Of a stretch of 64,000 nucleotides of DNA, positions 1 through 44,792 are shown one piece after another. The notes beneath the pieces are model-generated. The model was given only the letters and a program-made list of their open reading frames with translations, did not search any database and had not been told where the DNA came from. The stretch lies in assembly GCA_965222605.1 (NCBI GenBank), contig OZ244960.1, forward strand, positions 576,001 to 640,000, read 5' to 3'. Position 1 is the stretch's first letter; the number at the start of each line of letters is the position of its first letter. The DNA is from Candidatus Latescibacterota bacterium (GTDB lineage Bacteria > Latescibacterota > UBA2968). The position numbers were made by a program, and so were the translations under genes.

Positions 1-673
1 CCGCACCAGCCAGGATGAACATCAGCGGCTGCTGAAACTCTCGGCGCAAAATTTGTATGTCCTTCCCAAAATTCCGCATCGACATCGCCAGCCGGAAATC
101 TCGAAATCCGGTCTGGAAAGTAGTCCCGAAATCAATGCTAAAAGTCGAGTAATCCACCAGATCCAGGCTCTCTCGCAACCACATAAACCGCACCCCAAAC
201 GAGAGCTTGTCCGTAAACCTGCGCGCGTAGGCTGCGCCCATCCCCACCGTGCCCAAATCCAGCATCCGACCCGTACCTTGAGGCTCCAAAATCGTTGTCT
301 CTTCCACTTCCTCTGGGGCAAAACTCATAAAATTTACTGCAACCGCATGGATCCCCTTTCGAAAGCCGATCGCCCCCGAACTGAATTGCGAATTCACAAA
401 CCACCGCGAGTGGTTGAGCGATATCTCTGCCCGCTCCATTCCCACCAGCCCCGACGGATTCCACCAGATCGCATTGACATCATCTACCACGGGTGTAAAC
501 GCCTTTCCCATGGCAATGCCCCGGGCATCCTGCGCCACCTCCTGAGCCGAAAAAACCGTCAGCCCAAACCGTCTCACGATCGCCCCGGCGTCCGCCGGAT
601 CGGACCACGCCAGCAAGACCACCGCCAGACTCCATCCAATGAATAGTCTTTTATACATGGCACGCTTATACAT
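1..673 (-). CDS. PorV/PorQ-family outer-membrane beta-barrel, partial (runs off the left edge)
   Basis: Not in the ORF track; translated by hand as MYKRAMYKRLFIGWSLAVVLLAW...ARGIAMGKAFTPVVDDVNAIWWNPSGL...EETTILEPQGTG...FTDKLSFG. It has a signal peptide, an AGGAGA RBS at 681-686, and is clearly paralogous to 37533-38471. Confidence 0.85.
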   Translation of the reverse strand, partial: MYKRAMYKRLFIGWSLAVVLLAWSDPADAGAIVRRFGLTVFSAQEVAQDARGIAMGKAFTPVVDDVNAIWWNPSGLVGMERAEISLNHSRWFVNSQFSSGAIGFRKGIHAVAVNFMSFAPEEVEETTILEPQGTGRMLDLGTVGMGAAYARRFTDKLSFGVRFMWLRESLDLVDYSTFSIDFGTTFQTGFRDFRLAMSMRNFGKDIQILRREFQQPLMFILAGA

Positions 674-680
674 GGCACGC
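651..680. repeat. Perfect 15-bp tandem duplication (TTATACATGGCACGC x2) spanning the porV-like start codon
   Basis: Read directly; in frame, giving MYKRA-MYKRL. Confidence 0.95.
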
Positions 681-688
681 TCTCCTTA

Positions 689-1615
689 GAAGCTGTTTTA
701 AAACCCCTCGCTTAAGCGAGTCTGTTGATTAAGAGGTAAATCATAACGATGTAAATAAAGGCTTCACTACTGTCGGTCAAGTCTTCATAATCCTTTGATA
801 GTCGGCGAAAATTAAATAACCAGGCAAAGGTGCGCTCGACGACCCACCGGCGTTTGACGAGTTGAAAGCCTTTGCCTTTTGGGGTGACAACCTCAAGATC
901 AATCTTATGTGTGTGCTTCTTAGCAGCGACCCATTCTTTAAGGTCTTCGCCGCGATAGCCGCCATCGACCCATAGCTTGCGTAAGCGTGTCTGTCCGCTA
1001 TCAAAATACTGATTGATCACCTGCTTGAGGCCATCTCGATCTTGGAGATTGGCAGGTGAGACATAGGTGCTAATGACGAGTCCGAGGGTATCAACGAGAA
1101 GATGGCGTTTGCGTCCATTGACCTTTTTGCCAGCATCGTAACCCTTTGACTTTCCTTGGGTTGCTGTCTTAACACTTTGGCTGTCAATGCAGCCTGCTGA
1201 TGCGGTAGGCTTGCGTCCCTGTCGTTTGCGTTCTTTTTGTGTGAGCACCTGTTGCACCCGTTCAAAGATGCCTTGCTTGCGCCAACGATTGAAATAGCCA
1301 TACACGGTCTGCCAACAGCCAAAGGTAGGAGGCAGCATGCGCCATTGGCAGCCGGTCTTCGTCAGATACAGGATGCCATTGAACACTTGTTGCAAATTGG
1401 CAGGTGGGCGTCCAGAGCCCCCTTTTCGCCATTTACCTTTAGGCAGCAAGAGGATCAGCAGTTGCCATTGCGCTTGGGTGACATTTGTCGGATATTCCCT
1501 GTGCGTATTCATCTTTGTCCTTTCGTTTCAGGGTGATTTGCATAACCTGAATTTGGACAGATGAATACGCTTTTTCAACTCTTTTCTTCACTCACAATAG
1601 TTTTAAAACAGCTTC
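689..1615 (-). mobile_element. IS5-family insertion sequence (IS1031-like), 927 bp
   Basis: Perfect 16-bp terminal inverted repeats GAAGCTGTTTTAAAAC (689-704 and 1600-1615), TTA target duplication (686-688 and 1616-1618), and a single transposase ORF. Confidence 0.95.
712..1512 (-). CDS. IS5-family DDE transposase
   Basis: Motifs TGCQWRMLP, CIDSQSVK, GRKRHLLVDTLG, WVDGGY and RWVVERTFAW; intact 266 aa. Confidence 0.96.
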   Translation of the reverse strand: MNTHREYPTNVTQAQWQLLILLLPKGKWRKGGSGRPPANLQQVFNGILYLTKTGCQWRMLPPTFGCWQTVYGYFNRWRKQGIFERVQQVLTQKERKRQGRKPTASAGCIDSQSVKTATQGKSKGYDAGKKVNGRKRHLLVDTLGLVISTYVSPANLQDRDGLKQVINQYFDSGQTRLRKLWVDGGYRGEDLKEWVAAKKHTHKIDLEVVTPKGKGFQLVKRRWVVERTFAWLFNFRRLSKDYEDLTDSSEAFIYIVMIYLLINRLA

Positions 1616-1621
1616 TTAAAA

Positions 1622-4105
1622 TTACTGGGCGGTTGTGATCCCTCCAACAACCACGAATGTCCCGCGCTGGATCTCTCCGAGGCTCTCTGGCATCTCAGAC
1701 TCCACCACAAAGAAGTAGAGCCCCGGACTCAGCAACCCACTCACCTCTCGCGTCTCCTGGAAAAAGCTCGCCTCACCCGTACTCGGATTGTCGTGGGTGA
1801 ACTCGGCCACAAAGTTCCCTGAGACTGAGAAAACCTTCACATTGCACTTGGCCGGCAGGTTCACAAACCGGATCTTATCCGACCCCGTATAGGCATGCGT
1901 CCCATCGGCCAGGAAGGGGTTGGGCACCACCTTTACTTTACGCTCCAGCATGTTGGCCTCTACGTTGGACGCCACAGCAGGGCTGAAGGGCGGGTCTTCG
2001 TAGCGGAAGACTTGCTCTGCAGCCGAAAGCCCACTCTCCAGAGACGGCACCGGGCCGCGCCCCTTGAAATCGTTGTGCCCCGTATCGTAGGCGGTAACAG
2101 CAAAATAATACTGGAAGCCGGATAGGGCAGTATCATCCACAAATGTGTACTTGTCCGTAGATGGATCGTAGTAGGTCGGATCTCCCCTCGGGATATCCTT
2201 CAACAGTTTCCAGTTATCTACGTAAAAATCACTCCGATAAACCCGGTAGCCGGCCACATCCTTGGCCTCCGGGGTGCCGGCGTAATCCGGGTCTTCCAGA
2301 TCGTCCAGGCTCCCCCAGGTCAGATCGACGGTGGCGTCCACTGTGTTTTTCTTAGTCATCAGTACATCCGGCGGCGGCAGAGGCACATCGTATTCCAGGT
2401 CGTAAAGCTCTCTGGCTTTCCGAGCGTGCTTAATCAGATTTTGCATCGCTTTGTCCGTCTTCAGATCCGCCTGATTCTGCGGGATATTATCGTGCTGCCA
2501 GCCCCACATATTCTCCTCAACCGGCATTGCCGCCACAAAGGCCATCACAATTTTGACCTTGTCCCCCGGCTTCAGATCGTAAGGTCCGTAGGTATGTGCA
2601 AACGCATACCAGTTGGGAGACCTCGGAACATCGGCCGTTTCCCCGCTTCGGGACGGATTATTCTCCACTGGCAATGGCTCGGTCGGGTTCTCCGGCCAGC
2701 CCGTGCGCCCGTCCAGGTTGAACATGCTCGGGCGCTCGCCCAGTCGCGTCACCGACACCAACGCCAGAGCAATTTCGTCCTCGCTGTGCCGGTTGATCTC
2801 CGGTTCCTCTTTGTGCGGGAACCAGGGCACGGCAAAGGGCTGATCCATCACCCTGGGGGGTACGTAGGTCTCGCTGTCGTTGGCAAACCCGTCGGTCGGG
2901 TTCCAATCCAGGGGAATCACTCCCACGTACTGCCCCGCCATAATTTCTCCCCGTTCCTGGAAATTCTGCCGCCCCCGGCAGCACTGAATCTCGGGAACGT
3001 GAGGATCGCCCACATCGTCCCACGCCGTCAGTGGAGAATCCCAGTCAAACGCGTAGCTCATCTTCAGCCCGATGGCATCGGCCACATCGGCGTGTACCGG
3101 GTCTGCCGCCATATAGTTGGGCGCTTCCGTGTAGCGATAGACATCGTCGGTAACAATATCGTAGTTCCGCGACTCGGGCCACCGCAACAGCCAAATCTGG
3201 AACCCCAGCCCACCAATTACCCCGATATCGAAATTGGATGTGCCCCCTTCCGTGGGCCACAAATAATTGTAAAATGAAAAATACGTGTCGTTCAGGGTCA
3301 ACCCGGCCCCTCCGTTTAAATCCGCCGTCCCGTCTCCATCGGTATCTCCTGTATTCTCAAAGATATTCTCCACTATAATAAAGTCGTCGTAATCCCGGAA
3401 ACTCCACTGGTAAATCTTCTTTGTGCCCGTAATACCCGTCTCTGTCGTCCAGTGAGAAATCCCCAGCACTTCGCCAAACCGCTTGTGTTCCGGCTTCATG
3501 TACTTGCCGAAGTCGTTGTTGTGGATCTCCAGCACCTTGTTCGCATCCAGATGGGGGCCTCCATCTGCCCACCAACTCGCCATCGGCAATTCTGCCACCG
3601 GATGGAGGTGCTCAAAACCAACCCCGGCTACCCCTTCGGGCATGGATTCAATCGGATAGCGCACGGGCGTAATATCCGAACTTACCGAAAGCCCCGAAAA
3701 TGACACATTGTAGGTCTTGGCCCCATCGGGCTTGTATTCTGCCGGATCGGGCCTGGTAATGATATAGGTGCCCAGATTTCGGGCCGTGGAAGTCCGGTTC
3801 AAGTATTTCTGCATATGCGTCCTGGCCCCCGGCCACTGCCGAGCACTCCAGAGACTGCCGGTCAACCGGTTCCGGCCCGGATAGTTGACACCATCGGTGC
3901 TGGTTCGCCGGGATCCATCCCGGTCAGGCCCGTGCTGTCCGAAGTTCGTCAGACCCGTCCACACCTTGGCGCGCCTCAGATTCCGGTACTCCCCTTTCGG
4001 AATAATCTGTGCCCAGGCCACATCCCAGACCAGAACGGCCACCAGAAGCGCTCCGAAGATCACCCTCGCACAGGCCACCAGTGATATTCTGTGTACCCTT
4101 GTCAT
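1622..4105 (-). CDS. Large exported protein with an FN3-like domain and a T9SS-like C-terminal sorting domain
   Basis: Signal peptide; GYRVYRS...YYFAVTAYD (FN3-like); C-terminal VKVVPNPF...IRFVNLP..C.VKVFSVSG...GLYFFVVE; paralog of 38514-40889. Confidence 0.8.
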   Translation of the reverse strand: MTRVHRISLVACARVIFGALLVAVLVWDVAWAQIIPKGEYRNLRRAKVWTGLTNFGQHGPDRDGSRRTSTDGVNYPGRNRLTGSLWSARQWPGARTHMQKYLNRTSTARNLGTYIITRPDPAEYKPDGAKTYNVSFSGLSVSSDITPVRYPIESMPEGVAGVGFEHLHPVAELPMASWWADGGPHLDANKVLEIHNNDFGKYMKPEHKRFGEVLGISHWTTETGITGTKKIYQWSFRDYDDFIIVENIFENTGDTDGDGTADLNGGAGLTLNDTYFSFYNYLWPTEGGTSNFDIGVIGGLGFQIWLLRWPESRNYDIVTDDVYRYTEAPNYMAADPVHADVADAIGLKMSYAFDWDSPLTAWDDVGDPHVPEIQCCRGRQNFQERGEIMAGQYVGVIPLDWNPTDGFANDSETYVPPRVMDQPFAVPWFPHKEEPEINRHSEDEIALALVSVTRLGERPSMFNLDGRTGWPENPTEPLPVENNPSRSGETADVPRSPNWYAFAHTYGPYDLKPGDKVKIVMAFVAAMPVEENMWGWQHDNIPQNQADLKTDKAMQNLIKHARKARELYDLEYDVPLPPPDVLMTKKNTVDATVDLTWGSLDDLEDPDYAGTPEAKDVAGYRVYRSDFYVDNWKLLKDIPRGDPTYYDPSTDKYTFVDDTALSGFQYYFAVTAYDTGHNDFKGRGPVPSLESGLSAAEQVFRYEDPPFSPAVASNVEANMLERKVKVVPNPFLADGTHAYTGSDKIRFVNLPAKCNVKVFSVSGNFVAEFTHDNPSTGEASFFQETREVSGLLSPGLYFFVVESEMPESLGEIQRGTFVVVGGITTAQ

Positions 4106-4171
4106 AACATGGCTCCTCTATTGAGGGTTGGAAATCGAGCAGATTCGCCCGATCTCCAACCGCTTTGCTAT

Positions 4172-7100
4172 CTACCAGGTCACCCTCAGCCCCGCGAAGA
4201 TCTGTCGGCGCTCGTTCTCAAACCGATTCAATTCACTCACATCTCCAAACTGCTTGAAGAGCGTATCGTCCGGACGGGGCTCCAACAGCCCGAACCGGAG
4301 ATATTCCACAGGGGTCCTCTCTGCCTGGGTGCGCATCAACTGCTGGTTAAACAAATTGTTGATCTCCACATAGAGCAGCGGCCTTATACCCTTGATGTTA
4401 AACCCTTTCTGGAAGCTGATATCCACCGTGTCGCTGGTGGGGCCTTCCCGTTTGGCCTTGATATTGGTGATCGGATCGGTAAAGATGAATATCTGGCCGG
4501 TATAGATCCGGTAGATCAGGTTCAGCCGGATATCTCCAAAGAGCTTACTTCCCCAGAACCTCTCGCCAGGGCCGAAATCGGGTGGGCTGGCATAGATGAG
4601 CACCAGGCTCCCGTTCGTGCGACGAGCGTCGTCCCGGCTCCCCGCGCGCCAGGTTACTGTCTGAAGGGCGTAGAGACCCTGGAGTTGCGCCCTGCTCTCC
4701 TGGGACAATCCGGGCATTTCCCAGAGCTTGAATGTACGCCTGAAGTCCGCACCACTACCCAGTTCCCCGGCGATCAGTTTGTCCACCTGTGTCTGGGCGG
4801 CGGCTTGCAACTTCTCCAGTTCTGCTCCGGTCGGCGACTGGGGAATTTCCTCACCAGTGGTCTGATCGATCGTCCACTTATTCCAGTACCGGGTCGGATC
4901 GCCAATAAACGAGGCATCCGGATAGACGACCACACTGCCGTGACCCGCCTTGGTCCCACCAGTGTCCAGGTGCTCGCCCCACCCCATGTTGATCGCCGCT
5001 TTGAAGGAAAAGTTGTGCTTCAGCCCCTTTTTCAGCGCAAGTTCCAGCCCCCGTGTGGTGGCGTGTCGCTTGGGCCCAAAGGCTCGCGTCTTGCCCTTGG
5101 TGCCCAGCCCGGGATCCCGGAAGTCCCCTGTTTGCACCAGCAAAAACCCGTTGGACACCCGGTAATAGGCCGTGGTCTGAAGGGTGTAATCGCTGATGAA
5201 GTTCCACTCCGTGCCCAGTTCAAACGCCGTACTGATCTGGGTGTCCTGGAAACTGAACACATTGGCTGCAAATGCCGATCCAAACCCATCGTTGGCGAAC
5301 AAATTGTTGTTCTCCTCGGCCGGATCGATCTGTCCATTGCCGTTCTTGTCCAGAGAGGCCTGGCCCGCAGAGATCCAGCGATTCCTGAAGAAGAGTCCAA
5401 ACTCGGGCCGCGTGTGGTACTTCCCGTAGAAGAAGTGAATCTTCGATCTATCCGTAACCGGATGGGAAACCCCCAGCCGGGGCAGGATCCACTGGAGAGG
5501 CTCCATCTTACCCCAGGGCGTATATTTGACAAACCGGGTATAAGACTGGGTCATCGGTGCGGACTGAGTAATGTATAGCGGTACCTCCGCTCCCCAGAAG
5601 CGCTCATAGCGCAATCCCGCATTCACAATCAACCCTTCAAATTCCATTTTGTCCTGAATGTACCCCGTCAACTCCATCGGGGTCATCCCCTCCCGTAGCT
5701 GGCCGCGTTTTCCGTAGTAATACAGTCGGCGGTTCCGGGTCTTGGTATCTTCACGGGCGTCAAAAATACTGTAAGCATCAAATCGGGTCAAATTGAATCC
5801 CGCCTTCAGAAAGTGCCCCCGGGTCACCTGACTGGACAGATCTCCCCGCAGGCTCAAGCGCTTCTGCTCGCCAAGCTGGAACCGGCGCTGCGTGCCCGGC
5901 GTGACGTAGAACCAGGCGTCACTATCCAGATCCGGATCCACCGTCGCAGTCGGAATATCCGAGGTATCCTGCTTGCTTGCATAATACGATAGCCGCACCT
6001 CGTAAAAAGTTCGGGCCGACACGGTTTGTATAAGCGAGGCGTAGAGCATGTTGTCCGAATTTTTTTGGATGCCCCACCTGCTCTCAGTCTCGGGCAGGAA
6101 GATCGATCGGGCGTCGAAACTGGAACTGACCCGACGCTTATTCCACGAATACAACCCGCCCATACGCACCCGCATACTGGTTGAAGCATCGAATGTCACC
6201 TTGTAGCTATTATTCGTGTTAAAAGGCGTACGCTGCTCGGGCTGGGGCAGGCTTTTGGGCTGGAAGTCGTGCTGCGTACTGGTAAAAAAGGCAGCATTTC
6301 TACCGATCGGTCCCGATAACGAGGCCTCCAGAAAATGCCCTCGAACATCGGTATAGTCATCGGACGAGCGCTGATGTACCAGCCTGCCCGAATTATCGGT
6401 CTCCTTGTCCCAGACCGGATCTCCGTAATTCAGGTGGCCCCTGTGGACCGCGCTTTCATAGGCATTGTTCCCCCAGTGCTGCTGTTGCCCGGGCGTAAAC
6501 CGGTAGTGGACCTGTCCGTGATAATCCCGGCCTCCGTCCCGGGTCACAATCTGAATCGATCCGATATTGCCATATTCGGCGTTCAGCCCGCCGGCCAGCA
6601 CCGTGATCTCTGCAATCGCCGACGGATTGACATTGCCCCGCCAGTTTCGGCCGTCCTGCGTGGTCAACCGGATGCCATCTACCATATACTCGGCAACTTC
6701 GCCGTTTCCGGCCGCCCGGTAATAGGCATTCCGGACCCGATCCGTGCCATCTACATTGATCCCGGCTTCCAATTCCACAAAGCTGTCCATCGAGCGAACA
6801 AGGGGCAGAGCGTCAATTTCCTCGGCCGTCACCACATAGCGGCTCTCCGTCACATCGGCCTCCACCGGCGGCCGCTCTGCCACCACGGTCAATTCACCCA
6901 GTTCCAGAGTCGCTTCATTGAGCGTGAAATCCACTTCTGTCGTAATATCTGTCGTGACCCGCACGCCGGTTTTGCTCGCCGGAGTATAGCCGACTATCGA
7001 CGCCTTCATCGTATAACTCCCCGGATCTACGGACAGGATCAAATAGTAGCCATCCCTATCGGTCGTTGCCCCCCGATTCGTGCCTTCTACCACTATGTTC

Positions 7101-7234
7101 ACACCGGGCAGAGGCTCGCCTTTTTGATCGAATACATGGCCGATAATCTTCCCCGTCGTCGCCGCCCCGGCCAGGCTACAGACGCAGAAAACAAAGGCCA
7201 CCGCAAAAATCAAACACAGTCCTCGTTTGTCCAT
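4172..7234 (-). CDS. TonB-dependent receptor with an N-terminal CarboxypepD_reg-like domain
   Basis: TTGKIIGHVFD..GEPLPGVNIVVEG, plug motif AIAEITVLAGGLNAEYGN, YIQDKMEFEGLIVNAGLRY, PRLGVSHP, C-terminal Trp. Start moved to MDKRG using the AAAGGAG RBS. Confidence 0.92.
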   Translation of the reverse strand: MDKRGLCLIFAVAFVFCVCSLAGAATTGKIIGHVFDQKGEPLPGVNIVVEGTNRGATTDRDGYYLILSVDPGSYTMKASIVGYTPASKTGVRVTTDITTEVDFTLNEATLELGELTVVAERPPVEADVTESRYVVTAEEIDALPLVRSMDSFVELEAGINVDGTDRVRNAYYRAAGNGEVAEYMVDGIRLTTQDGRNWRGNVNPSAIAEITVLAGGLNAEYGNIGSIQIVTRDGGRDYHGQVHYRFTPGQQQHWGNNAYESAVHRGHLNYGDPVWDKETDNSGRLVHQRSSDDYTDVRGHFLEASLSGPIGRNAAFFTSTQHDFQPKSLPQPEQRTPFNTNNSYKVTFDASTSMRVRMGGLYSWNKRRVSSSFDARSIFLPETESRWGIQKNSDNMLYASLIQTVSARTFYEVRLSYYASKQDTSDIPTATVDPDLDSDAWFYVTPGTQRRFQLGEQKRLSLRGDLSSQVTRGHFLKAGFNLTRFDAYSIFDAREDTKTRNRRLYYYGKRGQLREGMTPMELTGYIQDKMEFEGLIVNAGLRYERFWGAEVPLYITQSAPMTQSYTRFVKYTPWGKMEPLQWILPRLGVSHPVTDRSKIHFFYGKYHTRPEFGLFFRNRWISAGQASLDKNGNGQIDPAEENNNLFANDGFGSAFAANVFSFQDTQISTAFELGTEWNFISDYTLQTTAYYRVSNGFLLVQTGDFRDPGLGTKGKTRAFGPKRHATTRGLELALKKGLKHNFSFKAAINMGWGEHLDTGGTKAGHGSVVVYPDASFIGDPTRYWNKWTIDQTTGEEIPQSPTGAELEKLQAAAQTQVDKLIAGELGSGADFRRTFKLWEMPGLSQESRAQLQGLYALQTVTWRAGSRDDARRTNGSLVLIYASPPDFGPGERFWGSKLFGDIRLNLIYRIYTGQIFIFTDPITNIKAKREGPTSDTVDISFQKGFNIKGIRPLLYVEINNLFNQQLMRTQAERTPVEYLRFGLLEPRPDDTLFKQFGDVSELNRFENERRQIFAGLRVTW

Positions 7235-7259
7235 TGACACCATCTCCTTTCTTCTCGGC

Positions 7260-7961
7260 CTACCAGAAATATTTGACCCCCACAATCAGATCGAGTGCCT
7301 GAAGTGGAAAAGCCTTCCTCAATCGCCAGTCCTCCAGAGGACGGAGTTCGCCCAGCATAATATTGAACCGCCCCCGGATATCTATCAGATAATGTTCCGA
7401 CCCAACGATAGTCACGCCACCGCCCAGCGAAAATGTCAGGGCCGCTCGCTTGTCCTTGTAAGGAGAAAGCAAGAGGGTCTGATTCAGGGTCTGCCCCGTC
7501 TGTCCAGAGAAAATCAGCCCCGATACCTCGTGCGAATACCCGTAAAATCCTAGCCCACCCTGCAGGTAGGGCATTGTTCCGCCTTGATTCAAGTCCCGGA
7601 AGTGGACCAGAGCAGTGGCTGAAAAGCTGTGGAACCACATATTCTGGGACGCATTCGGACTCCGGTAATTTTTTTTATCTACCGCCCAGGTGAACTCCCG
7701 GCTGTCCAGGTCTCCGCCCCCCATCTTTGAATAGTGATACTCAATCTCTGCAATCACCCGCTGCGCGGCCGCATAGTTATAGCTCACCCCGAGTTTCGGA
7801 GAAACAGAATACCACTGCTTGAATTTTCCGATCGGAACGTGCGCGCTTCCGAAAAACCCGATCCCCGACTGGCCTTCTTCTAAGGCTCCAGCCGTGGAAA
7901 CCGAGATCAGAACCGCCACAGTGAAGCATAGTGTTCTAAACATCGCTCTCAACATCCGCAT
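7260..7961 (-). CDS. Small outer-membrane beta-barrel protein
   Basis: Signal peptide, amphipathic strands (PYLQGGLGFY), ends VKYFW; AAGGAGG RBS before MRMLRAM; paralog of 44076-44792. Confidence 0.8.
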   Translation of the reverse strand: MRMLRAMFRTLCFTVAVLISVSTAGALEEGQSGIGFFGSAHVPIGKFKQWYSVSPKLGVSYNYAAAQRVIAEIEYHYSKMGGGDLDSREFTWAVDKKNYRSPNASQNMWFHSFSATALVHFRDLNQGGTMPYLQGGLGFYGYSHEVSGLIFSGQTGQTLNQTLLLSPYKDKRAALTFSLGGGVTIVGSEHYLIDIRGRFNIMLGELRPLEDWRLRKAFPLQALDLIVGVKYFW

Positions 7962-8239
7962 AAGCTGGCCCTCCTTTGAGATGGTAAAGAATACAACGCG
8001 GTATCGCACGCAATGCAAATACCTCTTCTTTCTGTGGCTCAATTTATTTTTTTTAAATAGAATTAATTTCTTTCAACTTCTTGTAAATATCAACTTCTAA
8101 TTTTCAGACACAGATACAAAAAAACCATCTATACCACGCCCTCCCGTTGGTCTTTAGACGGTTCTAACTCCACGCTAATAATGATGATAACTTAGTTGGC
8201 TATAATTTCATGAGTGTGAGTTTTTACTTATATCAAACA

Positions 8240-8270: not shown

Positions 8271-8287
8271 GCATTTTTTCAACCCTT

Positions 8288-32994: not shown

Positions 32995-33008
32995 ACAAAA
33001 GGCTCCTT

Positions 33009-34988: not shown

Positions 34989-35003
34989 CAATATCCCGGT
35001 AAA

Positions 35004-35984: not shown

Positions 35985-35994
35985 ATCATCTGTT

Positions 35995-37446
35995 CTAAGG
36001 CTCCTCTGTTTCTCCCACATCCCCCGGCCTGATCACGCGATCCATCATTCCAGCACGGTCGTGAATCCTCATGGTCTCCGCCTGCCAGTTCGGATTATAA
36101 AGCTCTCCGAGCATCGTCGAGTGTACCAGTTCATGCACGCTATTCCCGCGCTTATCTACAAAAACAAACTTGTAATATCCGATCTGATCGTAAGACCAAA
36201 TCTCGTACGATTTTCCGGTGGAATGGTAATCATGGCGTTCCACATGATCGGGAGGACCGTATTTGATATAGACCCGGCCCCTGTCCGTATTCGACCCCTT
36301 ATGCCTGGGCAGGGCGGGAAAATTCGTATCGGCATAATGAATGCGCTTGAAATACTCTGCGGCAAATTCGTTTTCCGGCGTATTCGGCGTGGGATCCCGC
36401 TTCTTCCAGAACGCGAGAATAAACCGCACCTTTTCCTCCGGATCTAACCCGCGATATTCATCCAGTTCTTCGCCTTCAGCAATATACTGAATCTGATTGT
36501 AGTACCGTTCCAAAGACGCCTCATCCGTTGCCAGGGAGACCTCCTCCAGCCTCCAGATTTGAAACAGTCGCCTGCCTGTTACAATTTTTCCCGTACCATT
36601 ATCTTTCACCAGCACCTGCAAAACATAACGGTCTGGAGAAAGCCCTTGAATATCCAGTGAATCGCCCATCACGCAACTGGTGCCCGGCTTTCTGAACCGC
36701 TTGGAAGAATAACTTTTAACCTGGAATCCCGTGGTATCCAGAATGGTGTATGCCAGATCGAATGTCTTCGGAGCGTCCTGGATAGCCAGATTATAAATCT
36801 CGAAATACACGTGTAATGCAGATCGGTCCTGCAAAAAACGTCGGGTGATATTGGGCACCACCCGCTTTCCATTTTTCACGAATCGACCCGGCCTGTTGGC
36901 ATCTCCAATGTGGGAGGCCAACTGCAAATTGCTGATCGACAGCGTCTTTGCGCCAAAAGCAGGTACAACAATCTCGCCCCGATAAGCGCCTTCGGCACCG
37001 GAATGCGTATCGATCACCTCCACCGTCAATTGATATGAGCCCGGCAGCAAAAGAAAAGAAAACACATCCAGAATTGTGGTATTTCCCGTATCCTTTTCAC
37101 CGGAACTCAGATCCATACCTCGCCGCCAGACCTGATCAACCTGTGAACCTATCTTCGGGGCCGTTTCCCCGGAAGCCAGAGCCTGGATGCGAACCTGGTA
37201 ATCCGCCCGATACCGGTCTTCTTCCCGAACAAACGAAAAACCATTTAGGGACAGAAGCATATCCACCTCAACATAGGTCTTCTCCTCTGTTGCTCGAAAT
37301 GCTTCCCAATCCATCCTGAACCGGATTTGTCCACTGCTCGTCAGAAGGCGGTCCTGTCCGAGACCATCGGACACAGTGCTTTCCACTGGTCCGACCACCC
37401 CGCATAAGACGACCAGGCAAATAGATGCACACCATCTTGCCATCAT
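35995..37446 (-). CDS. GWxTD-domain protein
   Basis: FWKKRDPTPNTPENE..EYFKRI.YA...GSNTDRGRVYIKYGPPD...YEIWSY. Start at MMARW. Confidence 0.9.
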   Translation of the reverse strand: MMARWCASICLVVLCGVVGPVESTVSDGLGQDRLLTSSGQIRFRMDWEAFRATEEKTYVEVDMLLSLNGFSFVREEDRYRADYQVRIQALASGETAPKIGSQVDQVWRRGMDLSSGEKDTGNTTILDVFSFLLLPGSYQLTVEVIDTHSGAEGAYRGEIVVPAFGAKTLSISNLQLASHIGDANRPGRFVKNGKRVVPNITRRFLQDRSALHVYFEIYNLAIQDAPKTFDLAYTILDTTGFQVKSYSSKRFRKPGTSCVMGDSLDIQGLSPDRYVLQVLVKDNGTGKIVTGRRLFQIWRLEEVSLATDEASLERYYNQIQYIAEGEELDEYRGLDPEEKVRFILAFWKKRDPTPNTPENEFAAEYFKRIHYADTNFPALPRHKGSNTDRGRVYIKYGPPDHVERHDYHSTGKSYEIWSYDQIGYYKFVFVDKRGNSVHELVHSTMLGELYNPNWQAETMRIHDRAGMMDRVIRPGDVGETEEP

Positions 37447-37471
37447 TGTCTTGACTCCCGGGTAAAACGCG

Positions 37472-37514
37472 AAAAAAAGCAAGCAACCACCAATGTGTTC
37501 ATCGGTGGTTGCTT
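37472..37514 (-). terminator. Intrinsic terminator after the porV-like gene
   Basis: 11-bp stem AAGCAACCACC/GGTGGTTGCTT followed on the minus strand by GC then T7. Confidence 0.75.
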
Positions 37515-37532
37515 AACAATAAATGTTGTCGC

Positions 37533-38471
37533 CTAAAAGGAGCCGCCGATCGTCAGTCTCAGCGGAGCATCAAAATGATTGCCAAAGTTGCTATATGCAA
37601 GATCCAGGGTAAACTTCCGACCCCCAAATTCCCGCTTGAGACCAACACCCAGGGAAAAATCCTCCAGGTCGTAATTCCACTTGTAACCGCCCCGCAAAGC
37701 AAGCGTATTGGCCAACCAGAGTTCTGCGCCCATATGCACCCGCGCCTCGAAATCTACGAAAAACACATTCTGGGCAGACACTGTCAAATAGGTCGGATCT
37801 CCCTTCTCACCCAGAACTTCCATCGCCCCGCCGATTGAGTAAACCACGGGCATAAACATTCGATCCAGAACCACTTTATTGTCCTTTCCAAAATTCTGCA
37901 AAGACATCGCGATTCGGGCCGACCTGAACCCCGTATAGAACATCGTACCCATATCGATGGAAAACGTCCTGTTTGTCCTGTCCGCCAATTCCTGTTGCAC
38001 AAACCGGATCTGTGCCCCGAAGGACATCTTGTTGGTCAGTTGAACCGCAAAGGACCCGCCCAGTGCCATATTGGAATTGTTAAAAATCTGACCTGTTCCG
38101 CCAGGTTGAAAGATCGTGGTTTCTTCAAATGCCGGAAGCTGAAGCGTCACGAGGCTCATTCCCCAGACCATATTACCCGTCTTATACGCAACCGCCCCGG
38201 AATAAAATTTCGAATCCACCAGCCAGCGGGTGTACGTAAACATATACTCCGCCCGCTTGATCCTGGTCAATCCCGCGGGATTCTGAAAAATCCCATTGAT
38301 ATCATCTGCAATCGCCGCATAAGCGTCGCCCATCGCCGCCGAACGCGTGGACTGGCCTACCTTGAGAAAAGTGAACCCGGCCGTGCCGACCTTCTTAAAT
38401 CCCGCATCGGCAGTTTCCGATAACAGAACCAGGACGGAGGCCATTACCCCTGTCAAAATCAAACGCACCAT
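37533..38471 (-). CDS. PorV/PorQ-family outer-membrane beta-barrel
   Basis: KVGTAGFTFLKVG..RSAAMGDA..AIADD...FQNPAGL, LRGGY, DLAY..FG, C-terminal Phe. Confidence 0.88.
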   Translation of the reverse strand: MVRLILTGVMASVLVLLSETADAGFKKVGTAGFTFLKVGQSTRSAAMGDAYAAIADDINGIFQNPAGLTRIKRAEYMFTYTRWLVDSKFYSGAVAYKTGNMVWGMSLVTLQLPAFEETTIFQPGGTGQIFNNSNMALGGSFAVQLTNKMSFGAQIRFVQQELADRTNRTFSIDMGTMFYTGFRSARIAMSLQNFGKDNKVVLDRMFMPVVYSIGGAMEVLGEKGDPTYLTVSAQNVFFVDFEARVHMGAELWLANTLALRGGYKWNYDLEDFSLGVGLKREFGGRKFTLDLAYSNFGNHFDAPLRLTIGGSF

Positions 38472-38513
38472 GTTAAATTCCTCCTTGAAAAATAGAGCAG
38501 AACCAGGCTCCTC

Positions 38514-40889
38514 CTACCGGATCACCGCAAAAATCCCTTTGGCAATCTTTCCCTCCTGTCCCGGCACCAGCGACTCTACGATATAAAAATAATGTCCGCT
38601 GGAAACCTGCGTTGAAAAATTGTACGTCGCCTGGGTCCAGATCTGCTCACCGGCCGGCGCGTCGGTCGGCCTCCGGGGATGGTCGATCACACCCACCAGG
38701 TCTCCCGAAATCGAATAAATAGATATCTTGCACTTCCTTGGAATATTTACAAATCGGATCCGCTCACTACCGGCATATCGGTGAACATCGTCCGGAATAT
38801 AGGGGTTGGGGACCACCCGCACCGGCTCCAGCAGCGCATCCTTCTGATCAGTTGCAATCACAATGGGGCTGTCCGAAAGGTTCACCCGCTGCTCCGGTGC
38901 CGCCCCTCCGCTTTCCAGCCCCGTCTGAATCCGCTGCTGCTGTCCCGAATCCAGATCGCTCAGCGTGGAAATGCCGTTGGTCCATGTGCTATGGCCGGTA
39001 TCGTAGCTTCGCACCGAGTAGTAATACTCAAACCCGGGCACCGACTCGACATCGTGGTAGGTATAAATCCCCGGCTCGCTTGCTGATTCCCTTCCGGCGG
39101 AAACCCAGGTCGCGTTCGCATCGTATTCCGTGTTTGCGGGGTAGGGACCTCCCGCGGGAATATCCGCAATTTGGGTCCACGGACCGATATGTCTGAACTC
39201 AGCCCGATAGACCCGATATCCTTTCACATCCTGTGCGTCGGCACCCGTATAATCCGGATCTATGGCACTGTCCACTGCGTCGGACCATGAAATGGCCAGG
39301 TTGCCGTTCTCATCGCTGGCCACCTTGATGGCCACGTCCGGCGGTGGTTTCGGGAGCTTATACCCATTATCATAGGCGAATTGCGCCCGCTCCAGATGCT
39401 GCAACAGCGCCCGCTCCCCGTCGGCCAGGTGTGTCTTATCTCCCATTCTGGACCAGACGAATACGTCCATCGGGCCGCCACCTGGCCCGGCAAACTCCGC
39501 TCCACTGCCCGCCACAAACGCCACCACGATTTTGGCCTTATCCCCGGGCGCCAGATCGTATGGCCCATAGACCTGAGCGGTAGTCGCTTTTTGAAGCGTG
39601 GTCGGATTCTCCATAATGGCCGGTGTAGTTCCCTTCCCGATCAGTTCCATGTAAATCTCTTCGTCCGCGCTCTTCCCCGGAGCAGGCATGGTGAAGTCTG
39701 ATTGACTGGTGACTGGCCACCAGGTTGCGCTGACCGGCTGGTCTGCCACCTTGGGTGCCACGTAGATCTCGGCATCGTTCGTAAACGGAGGCATATAATC
39801 CAGCGGCGCAAATCCAATATACTGAAACGCCATCAACTGTCCTTCGATCAGAGCACCCCGGGATTGCACCCCCGAAGGGGCCTGATTCAGAAAAACGGGA
39901 CCGCCTGTATCATCGTCCGAGGTCGTGGGATCGTCTCCGTCGTACACATAGAAAATCTTCTTTCCCCTCAACCCGGGCAGACCGTCGAAATTGGACGCCT
40001 CGCTGTATTTGATCCAGTCGTCACCCATACCCGGCTGATGCCAGTACGCATGCCCGCCCACGCCGGCATTGAGCCAGGATCGTTGCGCTTCAGATACGTA
40101 CATATTATTGACAAAAGCAAAGTAGGCATTATTCAGCGTAACCGGCAATCCCCGGTCGGCGTCGGGCAGGCCGTCTCCGGTTGCATCCCCCGTGTTCTCA
40201 AACGCAATCTCCAGAATAAAGAAATCGTCGTAATCGGGGTAGCTCCACGCCTTCGCCCGCCGCGTCACCGTGATACCTCGTTCGGTCGTCCACTGAGAAA
40301 TCACGATCTCCTCGGCCTCCGTACTGACCGGTATATACCGCCCGTACTCGTAATTGTGGATCTCCGTCAGGTCCGCCACAATCGCAGGCGCGCCCGGCCA
40401 GTAATTGGCCTTTAACGCGCCGGTCATGTGCGAAGTGGCCTGGATACCCAGATCCCGCTCGGGACCTTTGGAAGGATCGTATATCATCTCGGCAATATCG
40501 TCCGTGTTCACCCACGGGTTAGACCCGGAGACATTGAACTCCATCCCCTCTCTGGTCATAATCCAGATCCCTTCTCCACGGCCGCAGTTGTAGAGAAACT
40601 CTGGCTCGGTGTAGGACTGGATGACCTGTCTGGGGTCCGACCCCCAGTACTCTTCAAAATCCCGGCTCGAAACCCGGAACCCCGGGTACATCAGATCCAC
40701 CTCGTCTCCGAAGTAGGTGTCCTGGCGATATCCCTGGGTTCCCGTCTTGCGAAATGTACTCCAGAGTTGGCCTCGCGTCAGGCTTCTCTGCACCTCCGGC
40801 TGCTGGGCCAAAACGGCATCCCATCCGCCCGGGCCGATCAAGACGACGGCTACGATGAGGCACCATAGGCTTGTCTTGATGTTGCTCAT
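38514..40889 (-). CDS. Large exported protein with an FN3-like domain and a T9SS-like C-terminal domain
   Basis: WSYPDYDDFFI, YGPYDLAPGDK, PKPPPDV, GYRVYR, VRVVPNPY...IRFVNIP; paralog of 1622-4105. Confidence 0.8.
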   Translation of the reverse strand: MSNIKTSLWCLIVAVVLIGPGGWDAVLAQQPEVQRSLTRGQLWSTFRKTGTQGYRQDTYFGDEVDLMYPGFRVSSRDFEEYWGSDPRQVIQSYTEPEFLYNCGRGEGIWIMTREGMEFNVSGSNPWVNTDDIAEMIYDPSKGPERDLGIQATSHMTGALKANYWPGAPAIVADLTEIHNYEYGRYIPVSTEAEEIVISQWTTERGITVTRRAKAWSYPDYDDFFILEIAFENTGDATGDGLPDADRGLPVTLNNAYFAFVNNMYVSEAQRSWLNAGVGGHAYWHQPGMGDDWIKYSEASNFDGLPGLRGKKIFYVYDGDDPTTSDDDTGGPVFLNQAPSGVQSRGALIEGQLMAFQYIGFAPLDYMPPFTNDAEIYVAPKVADQPVSATWWPVTSQSDFTMPAPGKSADEEIYMELIGKGTTPAIMENPTTLQKATTAQVYGPYDLAPGDKAKIVVAFVAGSGAEFAGPGGGPMDVFVWSRMGDKTHLADGERALLQHLERAQFAYDNGYKLPKPPPDVAIKVASDENGNLAISWSDAVDSAIDPDYTGADAQDVKGYRVYRAEFRHIGPWTQIADIPAGGPYPANTEYDANATWVSAGRESASEPGIYTYHDVESVPGFEYYYSVRSYDTGHSTWTNGISTLSDLDSGQQQRIQTGLESGGAAPEQRVNLSDSPIVIATDQKDALLEPVRVVPNPYIPDDVHRYAGSERIRFVNIPRKCKISIYSISGDLVGVIDHPRRPTDAPAGEQIWTQATYNFSTQVSSGHYFYIVESLVPGQEGKIAKGIFAVIR

Positions 40890-40937
40890 AAAGCACCCTC
40901 CTTCAAATCATTTCGTGGCGATTACATCGCCTCGATA

Positions 40938-43900
40938 TTAGAACATAATCTGGAACCCTGCCTCGATCTGCCTGGGGAACCCGACCCACCGGGTATTTTC
41001 TTGGGGATCGCCGAACGTCCTATAATTTGCATTCGTCGGCGCCGGCAGAATCAGGCCATAGCGGTACCAGCTATTTCTGTTGCTCCTGGAAAGGGCCCTG
41101 ACGTCCCGCTGGTTAAACAGGTTCGTCATATTCAGGAGAAAACTCGCCCTGAGTTTGTCGTTAACCCGAAACTGCTTTTCAAAGGCCAGATCGGTCATCG
41201 TTTGCATCGGCGCAAATTTATTCTCGGCTGCCTGCCCGGGCAACTGCACGGACACCGACTCGCCAGACTTGATCCGGTAGATCAGGTTGACCCGGATATC
41301 GCCCAGAATCGTCCCATAGGTCGGCGGCGTCTGATACACAAAACTCACCTTGCCGAAACTCTGTCGGCTCGACCCCTCGCCGATTTCCCCTCCGGTTGTG
41401 ATCGTTCGCCCTGCGGGAATCCGGTTCGGCCGGTTGAAAGACCAGAGTCCGGGAACGCCATAGACCGGAATCAACGGTTCGTCGGTAAGCGGATCCCAGT
41501 CTAAAGCCGTTCCGGCCCGCACCGACTGGATCATTGCATCGGCGGCCGCACTCAACACCTGAACTTCTTCGGACGTCAGCGGAACCGGCACTTCGTTTCC
41601 GGTGTTGGTGTCCCGGGTGAAAGTCAGCCAGTAATCCCCGTTGGCAATAAAACTTCCGTCGGGAATATAAAAGGTGCGCTGCTCGGCAAGCTGCCCCCGG
41701 GTGTGCCACTGCTGGTTGAAGGAGATTTGAAAGGAAAGGTTGTCGCTGAACGCCTTCCGCAGGGACAGTTCGAACCCCTTCGTATCCTCAAACGCGTTGT
41801 TCAGCGCTGTCCGGCTCGTCCGGATAAATCCCCGCTTCTGCGGATCCCACCAGTACGGATTCCAGTTGCCTACATAATCCGTTCCACTCCTGTAATACGT
41901 AGTCACACTGGCCGTATAATCGCGGTAGAAATTCCAGTCCGTCCCCACTTCCCACTCTATGGTGGACTCAAAGCCCAGGTCGGTGCTGGAAGATGATCCC
42001 CGCTGCACAAGCTGGTTGTAAAGTTCGGTGTCGTCAATCCGGCCATTGCCGTTGAAGTCCGCCGAGGATTTTCCGCCCCAGAACGAGTTGACATAGACCC
42101 GGTAGAGCGAAGGCATCTGGGCGAACACCCCATAGGAGAAGTGAATCGCGGCATCGGCTGTAATCGGATGGGATACCCCGATCCGCGGACTCCACTTCTG
42201 GTGGGGTTTGGTCTTTACCCTGGGCGCGTAAAGCTGGTGCCGCCGGTACGAGTTGGCCATCGGCGCCACCATCCAGAGTCCGGTAGATACGGCCACCGGC
42301 TCGAAGTTGTGATCCCAGCGATCGTAGCGAAGGCCGACGTTGACGATCATTCCCTCAAACTCCATCTTGTCCTGAAGGTACACCGATGTCATAATCGGGT
42401 TGATCGGTTCCCCGATCTCATCCGGCTGGCTCACGGTCTCCAGACGGGGACTCCCGTTGGATCGGACCTGTAGCCAGGTCCACCAGAGGCTGTGGTAAGA
42501 CATCTCAACTCCGGTCTTGACCAGGTGGCCTTTCGTCACCTGACTGGTCAGGTCGAACTTGATGCCATACCGTTGCCGGTTGTCCGCCTCATAGGAAGTC
42601 TGCCGGTTGAAATCCACGGTAAACCAACCGTCTGCGTCCAGGCTTACTCTCTCTGCGGGAATGCCTTCCAGAGGGCTATTCTGATCCGTAGGCACATCGG
42701 TGGTATCCCTCGCATCCCGAAACCAGGACAGCCGGAACTCATAAAACGTCTTGGGACTCAACGTGTGGGTCAAAGAGAGATAGGATAGATCGTTCTTAAA
42801 AAGATTCTTACCTGCGCCGCTCTGACCCTCCGGCAAAAAGATGTTCCGCGTGTGATTTCGCTGTGTTCCCAGAAAAGTCTGGTGGCGCTCGTAGATACCC
42901 CCCAGTTTCACCTTCATATTGTCCCGCGCATCCCACGCCAGCTTGTAGGATCCCTGGAAATTTCCCGGAGAGGAAAACCAGTTGGTCTGTGAGACTGGAT
43001 TTTCAAAAAATCCTCGCATCTCGGCTCGTGGTGTTGGTGAGACCAGCCCCTGATATTTTCCGGAAACGAAGAAGGAAGCGATTCCCCCGATCGGTCCGGA
43101 TCCGGTCCCTTCGGCCCAGTGCCCATGCACACCCGTATAATCGTACCGCTCGTGGACCTTTCGCCCATTGGTATCCACTTCGTTTTCCCAGGTCGGATCG
43201 CCCCACTTCATTTTACCCTGATGCACGGCGCTATCAAAGAGATTGTTTCCCCAGTGCTTCTTCCTAGGAGCCGTCCACCTGTACTCCGCTTTTCCGTGAA
43301 AATCCTTGCCCCCCTCCTTTGTGATCACATTCACGACACCGCCGATGGCATTCCCATATTCGGCCGCCATACCGCCCGTAATCACCGTCACCTCCTGCAC
43401 CGCCCCGGCATTGATCCCGGTAAACGGCAGTTGGTGCCGCAATTCAGAGGCCTCCATCGGAACGCCGTCCAGCATAATCACCACATCGGACGTGCCCGTC
43501 CGGAGGTGCCCCCGGTTCCCGGAGTAACTGCCCCGCAGCGTCGGCAGGCCGTCCAGGCCAGCCCCCGCCTGAAGGGCGACAATATCCGAGATTTCCCGGA
43601 TGCTGGAAAGCTGCTCAATATCCTCCGCGGTCACCACATACTGGCTCGTGGTCTTGTCCGGCTCGATCGGTGGGCGCTTGGCCACCACCGTCAACTCAGC
43701 CAGTTCAACCGTGGTCTCCTTCAGCGTAAAGTTCAGCGTTCTTGTAAAATCTGCCGCAACCGAAACCCCGGTCTGGGTCTGATTGGCATACCCCACCAGC
43801 GAAGCTACCATAGTATAACGCCCGGGAGAAACCGACAGGATCAGATAGACACCTTCCGCATCTGTAGTGCCCCCCAGTCGTATTCCCTCGAGCACCACGT

Positions 43901-44048
43901 TAGCCCCGGGCAGGGGATTGCCCTGCTCATCACTGACCCTGCCCGTAAGTTTCCCCGTGGTGCCCCCGAACGCCCCCCCTGCTGCCAAAGCGACAACCAA
44001 CACACCAAGCAGGAGGCTGGCCTTCCTCACAAACAGGCGATTGTCCAT
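40938..44048 (-). CDS. TonB-dependent receptor with a CarboxypepD_reg-like domain
   Basis: TTGKLTGRV, AVQEVTVITGGMAAEYGNA, YLQDKMEFEGMIVNVGLRYD, SPRIGVSHP, C-terminal Phe. Confidence 0.92.
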   Translation of the reverse strand: MDNRLFVRKASLLLGVLVVALAAGGAFGGTTGKLTGRVSDEQGNPLPGANVVLEGIRLGGTTDAEGVYLILSVSPGRYTMVASLVGYANQTQTGVSVAADFTRTLNFTLKETTVELAELTVVAKRPPIEPDKTTSQYVVTAEDIEQLSSIREISDIVALQAGAGLDGLPTLRGSYSGNRGHLRTGTSDVVIMLDGVPMEASELRHQLPFTGINAGAVQEVTVITGGMAAEYGNAIGGVVNVITKEGGKDFHGKAEYRWTAPRKKHWGNNLFDSAVHQGKMKWGDPTWENEVDTNGRKVHERYDYTGVHGHWAEGTGSGPIGGIASFFVSGKYQGLVSPTPRAEMRGFFENPVSQTNWFSSPGNFQGSYKLAWDARDNMKVKLGGIYERHQTFLGTQRNHTRNIFLPEGQSGAGKNLFKNDLSYLSLTHTLSPKTFYEFRLSWFRDARDTTDVPTDQNSPLEGIPAERVSLDADGWFTVDFNRQTSYEADNRQRYGIKFDLTSQVTKGHLVKTGVEMSYHSLWWTWLQVRSNGSPRLETVSQPDEIGEPINPIMTSVYLQDKMEFEGMIVNVGLRYDRWDHNFEPVAVSTGLWMVAPMANSYRRHQLYAPRVKTKPHQKWSPRIGVSHPITADAAIHFSYGVFAQMPSLYRVYVNSFWGGKSSADFNGNGRIDDTELYNQLVQRGSSSSTDLGFESTIEWEVGTDWNFYRDYTASVTTYYRSGTDYVGNWNPYWWDPQKRGFIRTSRTALNNAFEDTKGFELSLRKAFSDNLSFQISFNQQWHTRGQLAEQRTFYIPDGSFIANGDYWLTFTRDTNTGNEVPVPLTSEEVQVLSAAADAMIQSVRAGTALDWDPLTDEPLIPVYGVPGLWSFNRPNRIPAGRTITTGGEIGEGSSRQSFGKVSFVYQTPPTYGTILGDIRVNLIYRIKSGESVSVQLPGQAAENKFAPMQTMTDLAFEKQFRVNDKLRASFLLNMTNLFNQRDVRALSRSNRNSWYRYGLILPAPTNANYRTFGDPQENTRWVGFPRQIEAGFQIMF

Positions 44049-44075
44049 AACAATACCCCCTTGCTGAAATAGAGA

Positions 44076-44792
44076 TTATTCGCCGGAAATATAAAACTTC
44101 AGTCCTGCGCCCACATCGAGTAAATGGAAGAAACTCGTTTTCTGGATGCCCCACACGGCAAAGGGACGAAGTTCTCCCAACACAAAATTGTAGCGTACCC
44201 GCAGATCCAGCGCGGCTCGTTCACTAAAAAAGAACAGCGTTCCACCCCCCACATTGATGCTGAGTGCCGTCCGCGTATCTTCGACCGGTTCCAGCAGGAT
44301 CGCCGGGTCAGGCGGCGCTCCTGGACTCGACGGTTTCTGCTCCGGATAGATCAGCCCGCTAACCTTGTTGGCATAATCGTAAAATCCGGTCCCGAATGTG
44401 ATGTAGGGCGCCCCTCCCTGGCCAAACCCGTTTTGCTTCAAAGCCAACAGCCAGTTGACTGATATACTGTTGAAGGTCATGTCCGAGCTGGCCTGTGGAC
44501 TTCTGTGATCCTTCCCATCAGCAAACCTGAAGGTCCGCTCCTCCAAACTCCCGTCGGAAAATTTGGCGTAGTGGTACTCCACCTCCATCAGCTTGCGAGG
44601 GCTGAGCATGTGGTGGACTGACACGCCAAACTTGCCGGTATCTGTGTACATATCCCGGAACTTGAAGAAGGGCCTGTAGAGAGAGCCAAACACACCGCCC
44701 CCCCAGTTTCCAGACAGGTCGGCGGCCTTTGCAGCTGAAGCCGATAACCAGACCGACAGAAATATCAAGCCAATGACTTTGATATATCTCAT
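44076..44792 (-). CDS. Small outer-membrane beta-barrel protein
   Basis: Signal peptide; shares EYHYxK, RSPxAS, VSGLI and LGELRP with 7260-7961. Confidence 0.8.
   Translation of the reverse strand: MRYIKVIGLIFLSVWLSASAAKAADLSGNWGGGVFGSLYRPFFKFRDMYTDTGKFGVSVHHMLSPRKLMEVEYHYAKFSDGSLEERTFRFADGKDHRSPQASSDMTFNSISVNWLLALKQNGFGQGGAPYITFGTGFYDYANKVSGLIYPEQKPSSPGAPPDPAILLEPVEDTRTALSINVGGGTLFFFSERAALDLRVRYNFVLGELRPFAVWGIQKTSFFHLLDVGAGLKFYISGE

Follow-up and report, generated by a model that had tools for sequence, protein, structure and literature searches.

A TonB-dependent receptor cassette with a PorZ-like-tailed cargo protein and an adjoining PorV-family barrel in a Latescibacterota genome

Described systems and the cassette

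Three described outer-membrane systems bear comparison with a four-gene cassette that we analyzed in a Candidatus Latescibacterota bacterium, within a 64,000-nucleotide stretch of DNA (the window; assembly GCA_965222605.1, contig OZ244960.1, positions 576,001 to 640,000) that is part of a 6.34 Mb genome in a single contig. In SusC/SusD (RagA/RagB) and the utilisomes, a large TonB-dependent receptor (TBDR) with an N-terminal extension has the gene for its surface partner directly next to it, and many paralogous pairs occur per genome. In the attachment complex of the Porphyromonas gingivalis type IX secretion system (T9SS), PorV-family barrels form the PorQ-PorZ and PorV-PorU pairs; PorQ and PorZ are single housekeeping parts of that system. 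The C-terminal domain (CTD) of PorZ is uncleaved and belongs to neither the A type nor the B type, and PorQ has been proposed to collect PorZ from the translocon and anchor it, according to the available portion of the source (PMC10947112), while uncleaved CTDs are described as longer than others (96-108 aa versus 67-88 aa) in the accessible part of PMC11285876. The third system comprises the SprF/PorP barrels, which the available text of PMC9143113 presents as cognate to, and co-encoded with, type B CTD proteins in surface anchoring. For the lineage itself, a Latescibacteria genome paper reports, in its available part, TonB-dependent import for B12 and iron only and SusD never (PMC4454575), and the distribution of SprA and SusCD across phyla of the Fibrobacterota-Chlorobiota-Bacteroidota (FCB) group is tabulated in PMC12611786, likewise accessible in part.

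The cassette encodes, in fixed order, a small outer-membrane beta-barrel, a TBDR, a large secreted protein with a T9SS-type tail (the cargo) and a PorV-like barrel. We read it, with a probability of roughly 0.6, as an outer-membrane module for nutrient capture and import whose surface partner is held in the manner of PorZ by PorQ. On this reading it resembles SusC/SusD in function and PorQ-PorZ in construction, yet it fails membership in either. The large receptor with its N-terminal extension, the partner gene beside it and the many paralogous pairs recall SusC/SusD, but the partner lacks a SusD family match, consists of beta structure throughout, shows no lipobox that convinces and ends in a T9SS-type tail; moreover, the cassette encodes two extra barrels, its flanks are, by Pfam, not dense in carbohydrate-active enzymes (CAZymes) and its receptor is not of the SusC/RagA family. 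As in PorQ-PorZ and PorV-PorU, a PorV-family barrel adjoins a protein with a PorZ-like tail; here, however, there are 28 private pairs, each linked to a TBDR, only the tail resembles PorZ, and the scores fall far below the equivalog cut-offs. SprF/PorP likewise co-encode barrel and cargo, whereas the cassette barrel belongs to the PorV/PorQ family and neither a type B CTD (TIGR04131) nor a PorP-family match was found among the window proteins. A literature search over titles and abstract openings, with most subscription journals and supplements outside it, found no published description, and the cassette is real, conserved, much expanded and apparently undescribed in print.

Both copies in the window lie on the minus strand. 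Copy 2 consists of the small barrel (44076..44792, 238 aa), the TBDR (40938..44048), the cargo (38514..40889, 791 aa) and the PorV/PorQ-family barrel (37533..38471, 312 aa). Copy 1 has the small barrel at 7260..7961 (233 aa), the TBDR at 4172..7243, preceded by a ribosome-binding site, the cargo at 1622..4105 (827 aa) and the 5' part of the PorV/PorQ-family gene at 1..673, a 320-aa gene reaching 290 nt beyond the window start. The first-pass annotation had reported the same four-gene order at both places, and all eight genes are present there; copy 1, however, is non-contiguous, because an IS5-family insertion element (~687-1616, minus strand; transposase 712-1512 with DDE_Tnp_1 and DUF4096, inverted ends, 10 near-full copies in the genome) splits the cargo gene from the PorV gene, at a junction that spans <=52 nt in the other 21 cassettes. 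This element may be polar on the PorV gene. The copies were rightly judged paralogous and well diverged (identity 40.4% for the small barrel, 38.6% for the TBDR, 38.7% for the cargo and 38.5% for the PorV-like barrel), but a count of two was too low: profiles built from the paralogues found, in the host genome, 22 cassettes with all four genes and 6 with three genes, the small barrel being absent, with the order fixed in 22/22 and 6/6, respectively.

The four genes are largely confined to these loci, as all 22 small-barrel genes of the genome, 28 of 29 cargo matches, 28 of 39 PorV-family matches and 28 of 44 TBDR-profile matches sit in cassettes. Mean identity among paralogues is 36-42%. With one near-identical duplicate omitted, the distance matrices of the four genes are correlated (Spearman 0.41-0.62; 0 of 2000 permutations as high) and their trees have 7 of 18 splits common to all, from which we infer that the cassette duplicates as a unit. 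The mirror-tree test suggested earlier thus finds the four genes co-inherited, as any linked genes would be. An apparent small barrel-PorV signal (partial Mantel 0.37 over 37 cassettes) was rejected as a lineage effect, since it dropped to 0.11 within the host genome and to 0.16 without distant lineages.

Several further features of these genes were seen in the host genome. Two cassettes (552651-560216 and 4049200-4056769) share 98% DNA identity across 7.57 kb, and repeat-rich FN3 and leucine-rich-repeat surface-protein genes beside them are also duplicated; this reflects either recent duplication or a strain artefact. In 7 of 22 small-barrel genes, versus 7 of 932 in the background, the real ribosome-binding site is preceded at a distance of 54-119 nt by a second, AGGAGG ribosome-binding-like site; these extra sites, which give no leader peptide that is conserved, could be a regulatory RNA element. 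Outside the cassettes, truncated-looking PorV-family genes at 225174-226280 (followed by a 656-aa protein resembling the DUF6785 neighbors described below) and 794712-795428 are possibly cassette remnants. At 4602000-4610000 (locus L040) and 4586708-4589157, PorV-family genes are interleaved with genes for secreted-looking proteins of 300-420 aa that are without the cassette tail and match no NCBIfam model, a second kind of PorV-linked locus.

Architecture of the four proteins

The copy 2 cargo was modelled by AlphaFold2 as a mostly beta protein (predicted local distance difference test score, pLDDT, 93.5; predicted template modelling score, pTM, 0.94; 642 of 763 residues at pLDDT >= 90). In the mature chain, fold searches recognized a galactose-mutarotase-like beta-supersandwich (1-480), an FN3 domain (~490-605) and a PorZ-like tail (~660-763), an architecture also assigned to the copy 1 cargo, which has no Pfam match. 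Residues 1-480 and the helix that follows share the fold of the N-terminal supersandwich of glycoside hydrolase (GH) families GH15, GH65, GH94 and GH116 and of aldose 1-epimerases (Z 14-19). The N-domain matches 1lf6 at Z 18.8 (root-mean-square deviation, rmsd, 2.9; 234 residues aligned), and the N-domains of glucoamylase, glucodextranase and GH94 phosphorylases at Z 17-19. The cargo departs from these enzymes in its low identity to them (7-12%), in the absence from the model of the (alpha/alpha)6 catalytic barrel of GH15/GH65/GH94, and in the FN3 domain and secretion tail that follow.

These similarities raise the alternative of a surface-tethered enzyme (a glycosidase, lyase or epimerase with a catalytic supersandwich) whose products are imported by the receptor. 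All the top fold matches are carbohydrate-active enzymes, some of them chains that are mostly sandwich; several polar residues (R11, N151, Y157, E165, N204, D262, D289 and D299) are near-invariant among 51 close cargo members; and the tandem cargo arrays of a KSB1 genome, described below, resemble enzyme sets. However, the best matches are to the non-catalytic N-domain of two-domain enzymes whose catalytic barrel the cargo model lacks, and no Pfam or NCBIfam enzyme model matches the cargo. Most of the polar residues fall to 36-74% or are gone in 69 distant members, although N204 holds at 90%, and the 128-sequence alignment has no invariant column. A catalytic role for the large protein is, in our judgment, unlikely.

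The tail of the copy 2 cargo (38514-38828) matches PorZ in structure (5m11; Z 12.6, rmsd 2.3, 94 residues aligned) and in a PDB profile search (E 2e-5); that of copy 1 matches PorZ weakly (E 0.027). The claim that the large protein bears a T9SS-type CTD was confirmed and narrowed, the tail being most like that of PorZ and limited to cassette proteins. Within the host genome, a profile of the 22 four-gene cargo tails retrieved only those and the 6 held-out three-gene cargos (E <= 1.3e-13), with the next match at E 0.067, and all 28 adjoin a PorV-family gene; the cassette tail is its own private type. The type A model TIGR04183 has 15 matches in the genome, 14 above cut-off, and finds none of the 22 four-gene cargos and one three-gene cargo, below cut-off. 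The N-termini of the cargos are hydrophobic and signal-peptide-like as judged by eye, and a lipobox pattern occurs in 1 of 22, as a pattern match alone and near the start of a signal peptide that is ordinary in other respects. For export and energized import, the genome holds an SprA gene (2059 aa, 632 bits versus a cut-off of 200) and 12 TonB_C matches.

The tail also bears on whether the cargo stays at the surface. The PorV paralogue could be a private shuttle only, with the cargo released as a diffusible, hemophore-like scavenger or host-binding protein and the receptor retaking the cargo or its ligand. A PorU-like gene of 1900 aa with a type A tail, below the family cut-off, does exist in the genome (739537-746727; L119, L120), the receptor fold matches include secreted scavenger/receptor pairs, HasA/HasR for example, and extra cargo copies without a PorV gene of their own occur. 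Release is nevertheless distinctly unlikely, as the tail resembles the uncleaved CTD of PorZ rather than the generic type A, 28 PorV paralogues are not obviously needed for it, and the tail length of ~100 aa fits the range given for uncleaved CTDs in the accessible part of PMC11285876.

Both PorV-like proteins of the window exceed the NF033709 cut-off (101 bits in copy 1 and 159 in copy 2, versus 90), and the copy 2 profile matches the solved PorV 6h3i_F (E 1e-26). PorQ equivalog scores are 44-75 bits versus 220, while the PorZ model gives at most 31 bits versus 260, and on the tail only; copy 2 reaches 75 bits for PorQ and 59 for PorV, both below cut-off. By these profile scores, the barrel belongs to the PorV/PorQ family and to neither equivalog. 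The small barrel is matched below cut-off by OMP_b-brl (E 0.003 in copy 1 and 7e-6 in copy 2), has conserved loop motifs in its alignment, and has generic outer-membrane barrels as its Atlas neighbors; the sole PDB match of its profile, the designed protein MITSUBA-1 (E 2e-5), was judged spurious.

The copy 1 receptor has CarboxypepD_reg and Plug domains, and the copy 2 receptor was modelled by AlphaFold2 (pLDDT 83.5) with an N-terminal extension, a plug, a barrel of 22 strands and large outer loops. All its Foldseek matches are TonB-dependent transporters, including SusC structures (E about 1e-22 to 1e-27). TIGR04056, the SusC/RagA family model, scores the receptors at 71 and 79 bits versus a cut-off of 368 and matches the N-terminal 260 residues alone. 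The modelled fold is that of a TBDR, and by TIGR04056 the protein is not of the SusC family. A long outer loop (~760-860) is present in four-gene receptors and mostly missing from the six three-gene receptors. At residues ~636-644 of the copy 2 receptor, an outer loop carries an EF-hand-like DxNxNG motif, and the pattern is found in 15 of 22 receptors; SusC proteins carry a similar motif. Complex prediction for receptor residues 609-1008, a part of the barrel, with cargo residues 4-603 gave 0.00 in both runs from 52-row alignments and speaks neither for nor against contact. Receptor-cargo residue covariation (38 effective sequences) was discarded because its internal control failed, adjacent-strand pairs not being enriched among the top pairs.

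The first-pass annotation also called the cassette SusD-less, and four SusD Pfam models bear this out, matching in no cassette. PF07980 has one match in the host genome, beside an unrelated receptor and outside all cassettes, and PF14322, PF12771 and PF12741 have no match there, with controls positive in B. thetaiotaomicron.

Surroundings and distribution

Two protein families recur beside the cassettes. DUF6785/DUF6784 genes lie within 6 kb of 15/22 cassettes, compared to 2.3 at random points and a maximum of 7 in 1000 draws, and are downstream and co-directional in 12/22; GWxTD/TPR genes, detected with a five-seed profile, lie within 6 kb of 13/22 versus 2.1 at random. The host genome has 52 DUF6785-family and ~50 GWxTD/TPR-type genes in total. 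Downstream of copy 2 on the minus strand, the GWxTD-domain gene (35995..37482; TIGR04514, 106 bits) is directly 3' of the PorV gene, followed by a co-directional SH3 and FGE-sulfatase-domain protein (35004..36020), a variable neighbor, and by a polytopic DUF6785/DUF6784 membrane protein with ~12 hydrophobic segments (33009..34991), a candidate inner-membrane transporter. The FGE-domain protein was considered as GldK and rejected (132 versus 350 bits). A second DUF6785/DUF6784 membrane protein (11706..13673, minus strand, ~10 hydrophobic segments) lies 3.7 kb upstream of copy 1, and its link to that copy is uncertain. A link of DUF6785 to the OPT transporters is a weak lead from one Atlas cluster, in which PF03169 is found on 11% of members; PF03169 matches none of 22 DUF6785 members, and a profile search found no solved relative. 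A search under the names DUF6785 and GWxTD found no relevant literature.

Around 20 cassettes, 87 other flanking proteins include, by Pfam, 5 of CAZyme type, 5 sulfatases (one of them also among the CAZyme-type proteins), 6 PhyH, 4 Gfo/Idh/MocA and 4 peptidase-type proteins; the CAZyme-type count rests on Pfam families with no CAZy-specific library, and many neighbors are unannotated. Sulfatase, PhyH and Gfo/Idh/MocA genes show no clear enrichment near cassettes, and the regulators in the flanks are of the LacI, GntR and ROK families. The surroundings appear to be catabolic islands rather than classical polysaccharide utilization loci (PULs). The label "PUL-like" given earlier therefore applies loosely, as only 5 of 87 flanking proteins are of CAZyme type and the enriched neighbors are DUF6785 and GWxTD proteins. 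Elsewhere in the window, paralogous double-domain PhyH dioxygenases (45527-47287 and 49000-50739) lie in a catabolic block with sulfatases, an arylsulfotransferase and oxidoreductases, and 57073-64000 is a type I restriction-modification region of lower GC content with an HsdM fused to a helix-turn-helix domain, an aspartyl-protease-like gene, HsdS, an AAA ATPase and a Schlafen/AlbA_2 protein.

This context bears on the possibility that the cassette builds a surface structure, such as an adhesin or coat, with the TBDR-like barrel acting as an assembly or anchoring part rather than as an importer. PorF, a TBDR-like protein, would be the precedent. It is listed among T9SS components in the available text of PMC10947112. 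The lineage is also present in sponge samples, where surface proteins may matter, and the window sequence itself occurs in sponge metagenome runs. But the cassettes are surrounded by genes for catabolism, by regulators of sugar type and by a family of membrane proteins, the plug and N-terminal extension are intact in all receptor copies, and the cargo has no repeats, which makes a purely structural role very unlikely.

The gene order of copy 2 was also found in other sequence data. Part of copy 2 occurs in 13 RNA-labelled sequencing runs; four of these, from four studies, were compared with the block, and one yields a 16.3-kb contig that spans all of it at ~97.5% identity, while three give short low-depth pieces. 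All of these matches are contigs, flanking genes are also covered and DNA carry-over is possible, so they support the assembly and the gene order, not transcription.

The small-barrel profile matches 31/31 close genomes and, with two weak matches included, 52/153 in the phylum; in this phylum sample strong matches are restricted to three families, and a fourth family has 0/69. Among the best 78 genome loci, drawn from 361 matches and thus a non-independent set weighted towards close relatives, the full order is found at 64, and 2 more are full but have one gene broken. Another 10 have TBDR-cargo-PorV (4 end short upstream and 6 are without the small barrel), 1 ends downstream and 1 has no PorV gene. 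In a sample of the phylum of the KSB1 genome, the small barrel was matched in 6/81 genomes; of three loci examined, two keep the order and the third stops at a contig end. The synteny that had been predicted is thus conserved, both at the 64 loci and in two KSB1 genomes. Records titled Gemmatimonas or Gemmatimonadota were not counted as a further phylum, as they have contigs in common with genomes of the phylum to which the window belongs (G154 with G061, G155 with G066). The metagenome set comprised 69 loci, many of which are short: the complete four-gene order was seen at 25, in some cases interrupted by a single inserted gene, and TBDR-cargo-PorV at 43. In several marine metagenome loci and one of the KSB1 phylum (L133, L142, L146, L152, L155, L169 and L199), an extra gene of ~340 aa, its product secreted-looking where inspected, stands between small barrel and receptor. 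Downstream, a second cargo gene is found at several of the marine loci, and at some the PorV gene is followed by one for a membrane protein of 520 aa.

The cargo family is large, its profile matching 5940 clusters at E <= 0.001, 342 at E <= 1e-30, and 2415 clusters at 50% identity at E <= 1e-10. In 10 clusters inspected, names are few, either "hypothetical protein" or "T9SS type A sorting domain-containing protein", and the labels are Bacteroidota, KSB1 and Neomarinimicrobiota.

Proposed mechanism and meaning

If the cassette is a capture and import module, the cargo would cross the inner membrane by its signal peptide and exit through SprA by means of its C-terminal tail. By analogy with PorZ in PorQ, it would keep that tail and remain surface-bound, seated in the PorV/PorQ-like barrel that the adjoining gene encodes. 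Its supersandwich may then bind substrate and pass it to the co-encoded receptor, the modelled TBDR, for import. The small barrel is a putative lineage-restricted structural subunit, and in Latescibacterota passage of the substrate through the inner membrane would probably fall to the linked DUF6785 protein. Substrates probably differ between paralogous cassettes. That the cargo is a strict SusD-like lid, closing over the receptor barrel instead of only lying next to it, is a tentative proposal that we hold at less than even odds. Similarly conjectural is the broadest version of the model, a novel class of TonB-dependent uptake in FCB lineages other than Bacteroidota. In it, a lid that is exported by the T9SS and is no lipoprotein would have its tail in a private PorV-like barrel and dock on its cognate receptor, with the small barrel as fourth subunit and DUF6785 as the matching inner-membrane transporter; the system would replace SusC/SusD as the main importer of the lineage, whose T9SS would serve nutrient import above all.

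A number of observations weigh against this reading or parts of it. The supersandwich is also found in stand-alone enzymes, among them mutarotase-like chains (Z 14.0) and a GH174 fucanase (Z 13.6). Linkage by itself predicts co-inheritance, so that the correlated trees are no evidence of contact, and the partial correlation of tail with PorV within the host genome is 0.0 (247 of 500 permutations reach it). The search for core T9SS genes such as SprA and PorK-N, proposed at the outset, was borne out for SprA, but GldM and GldN had no match in the host genome, with positive controls also silent; GldL was unsearched and GldK not searched genome-wide. With CAZymes at 5/87 and sulfatases near 5/22 cassettes versus 5.3 expected, a glycan substrate is without support from context. 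DUF6785 is present at 68/78 genome loci and at only 4/69 metagenome loci, many of them short, and is probably a Latescibacterota feature. The six genome loci without a small barrel have a full upstream flank, and at one other (L102) no PorV gene follows the cargo though the flank suffices. More than one cargo match is found at 25/69 metagenome loci, and one KSB1 genome (G153:C427 and G153:C354, the latter L200) has cargo-family genes in tandem arrays, with some six of them on a single contig; loci in other lineages at which a TBDR or PorV gene is accompanied by more than one cargo gene are a misfit with a strict one-to-one lid. Even so, none of the three outcomes that the first-pass annotation had named as counting against its proposal (no conserved synteny in other genomes, no predicted cognate interfaces, or a match of the large protein to a characterized enzyme with no link to the TBDR) was obtained.

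SusC/SusD pairs are how the nutrient niches of Bacteroidota are inferred from genomes. Latescibacterota, KSB1 and like lineages have few SusD genes, and so their uptake loci have been overlooked. If the capture and import reading is true, the cassette would be a marker for the uptake loci of those lineages, and would give a function to the large unannotated cargo family (2415 clusters) and a reason for the many PorV paralogues. It would also offer a first handle on the DUF6785 and GWxTD proteins, and would tie type IX secretion directly to TonB-dependent import.

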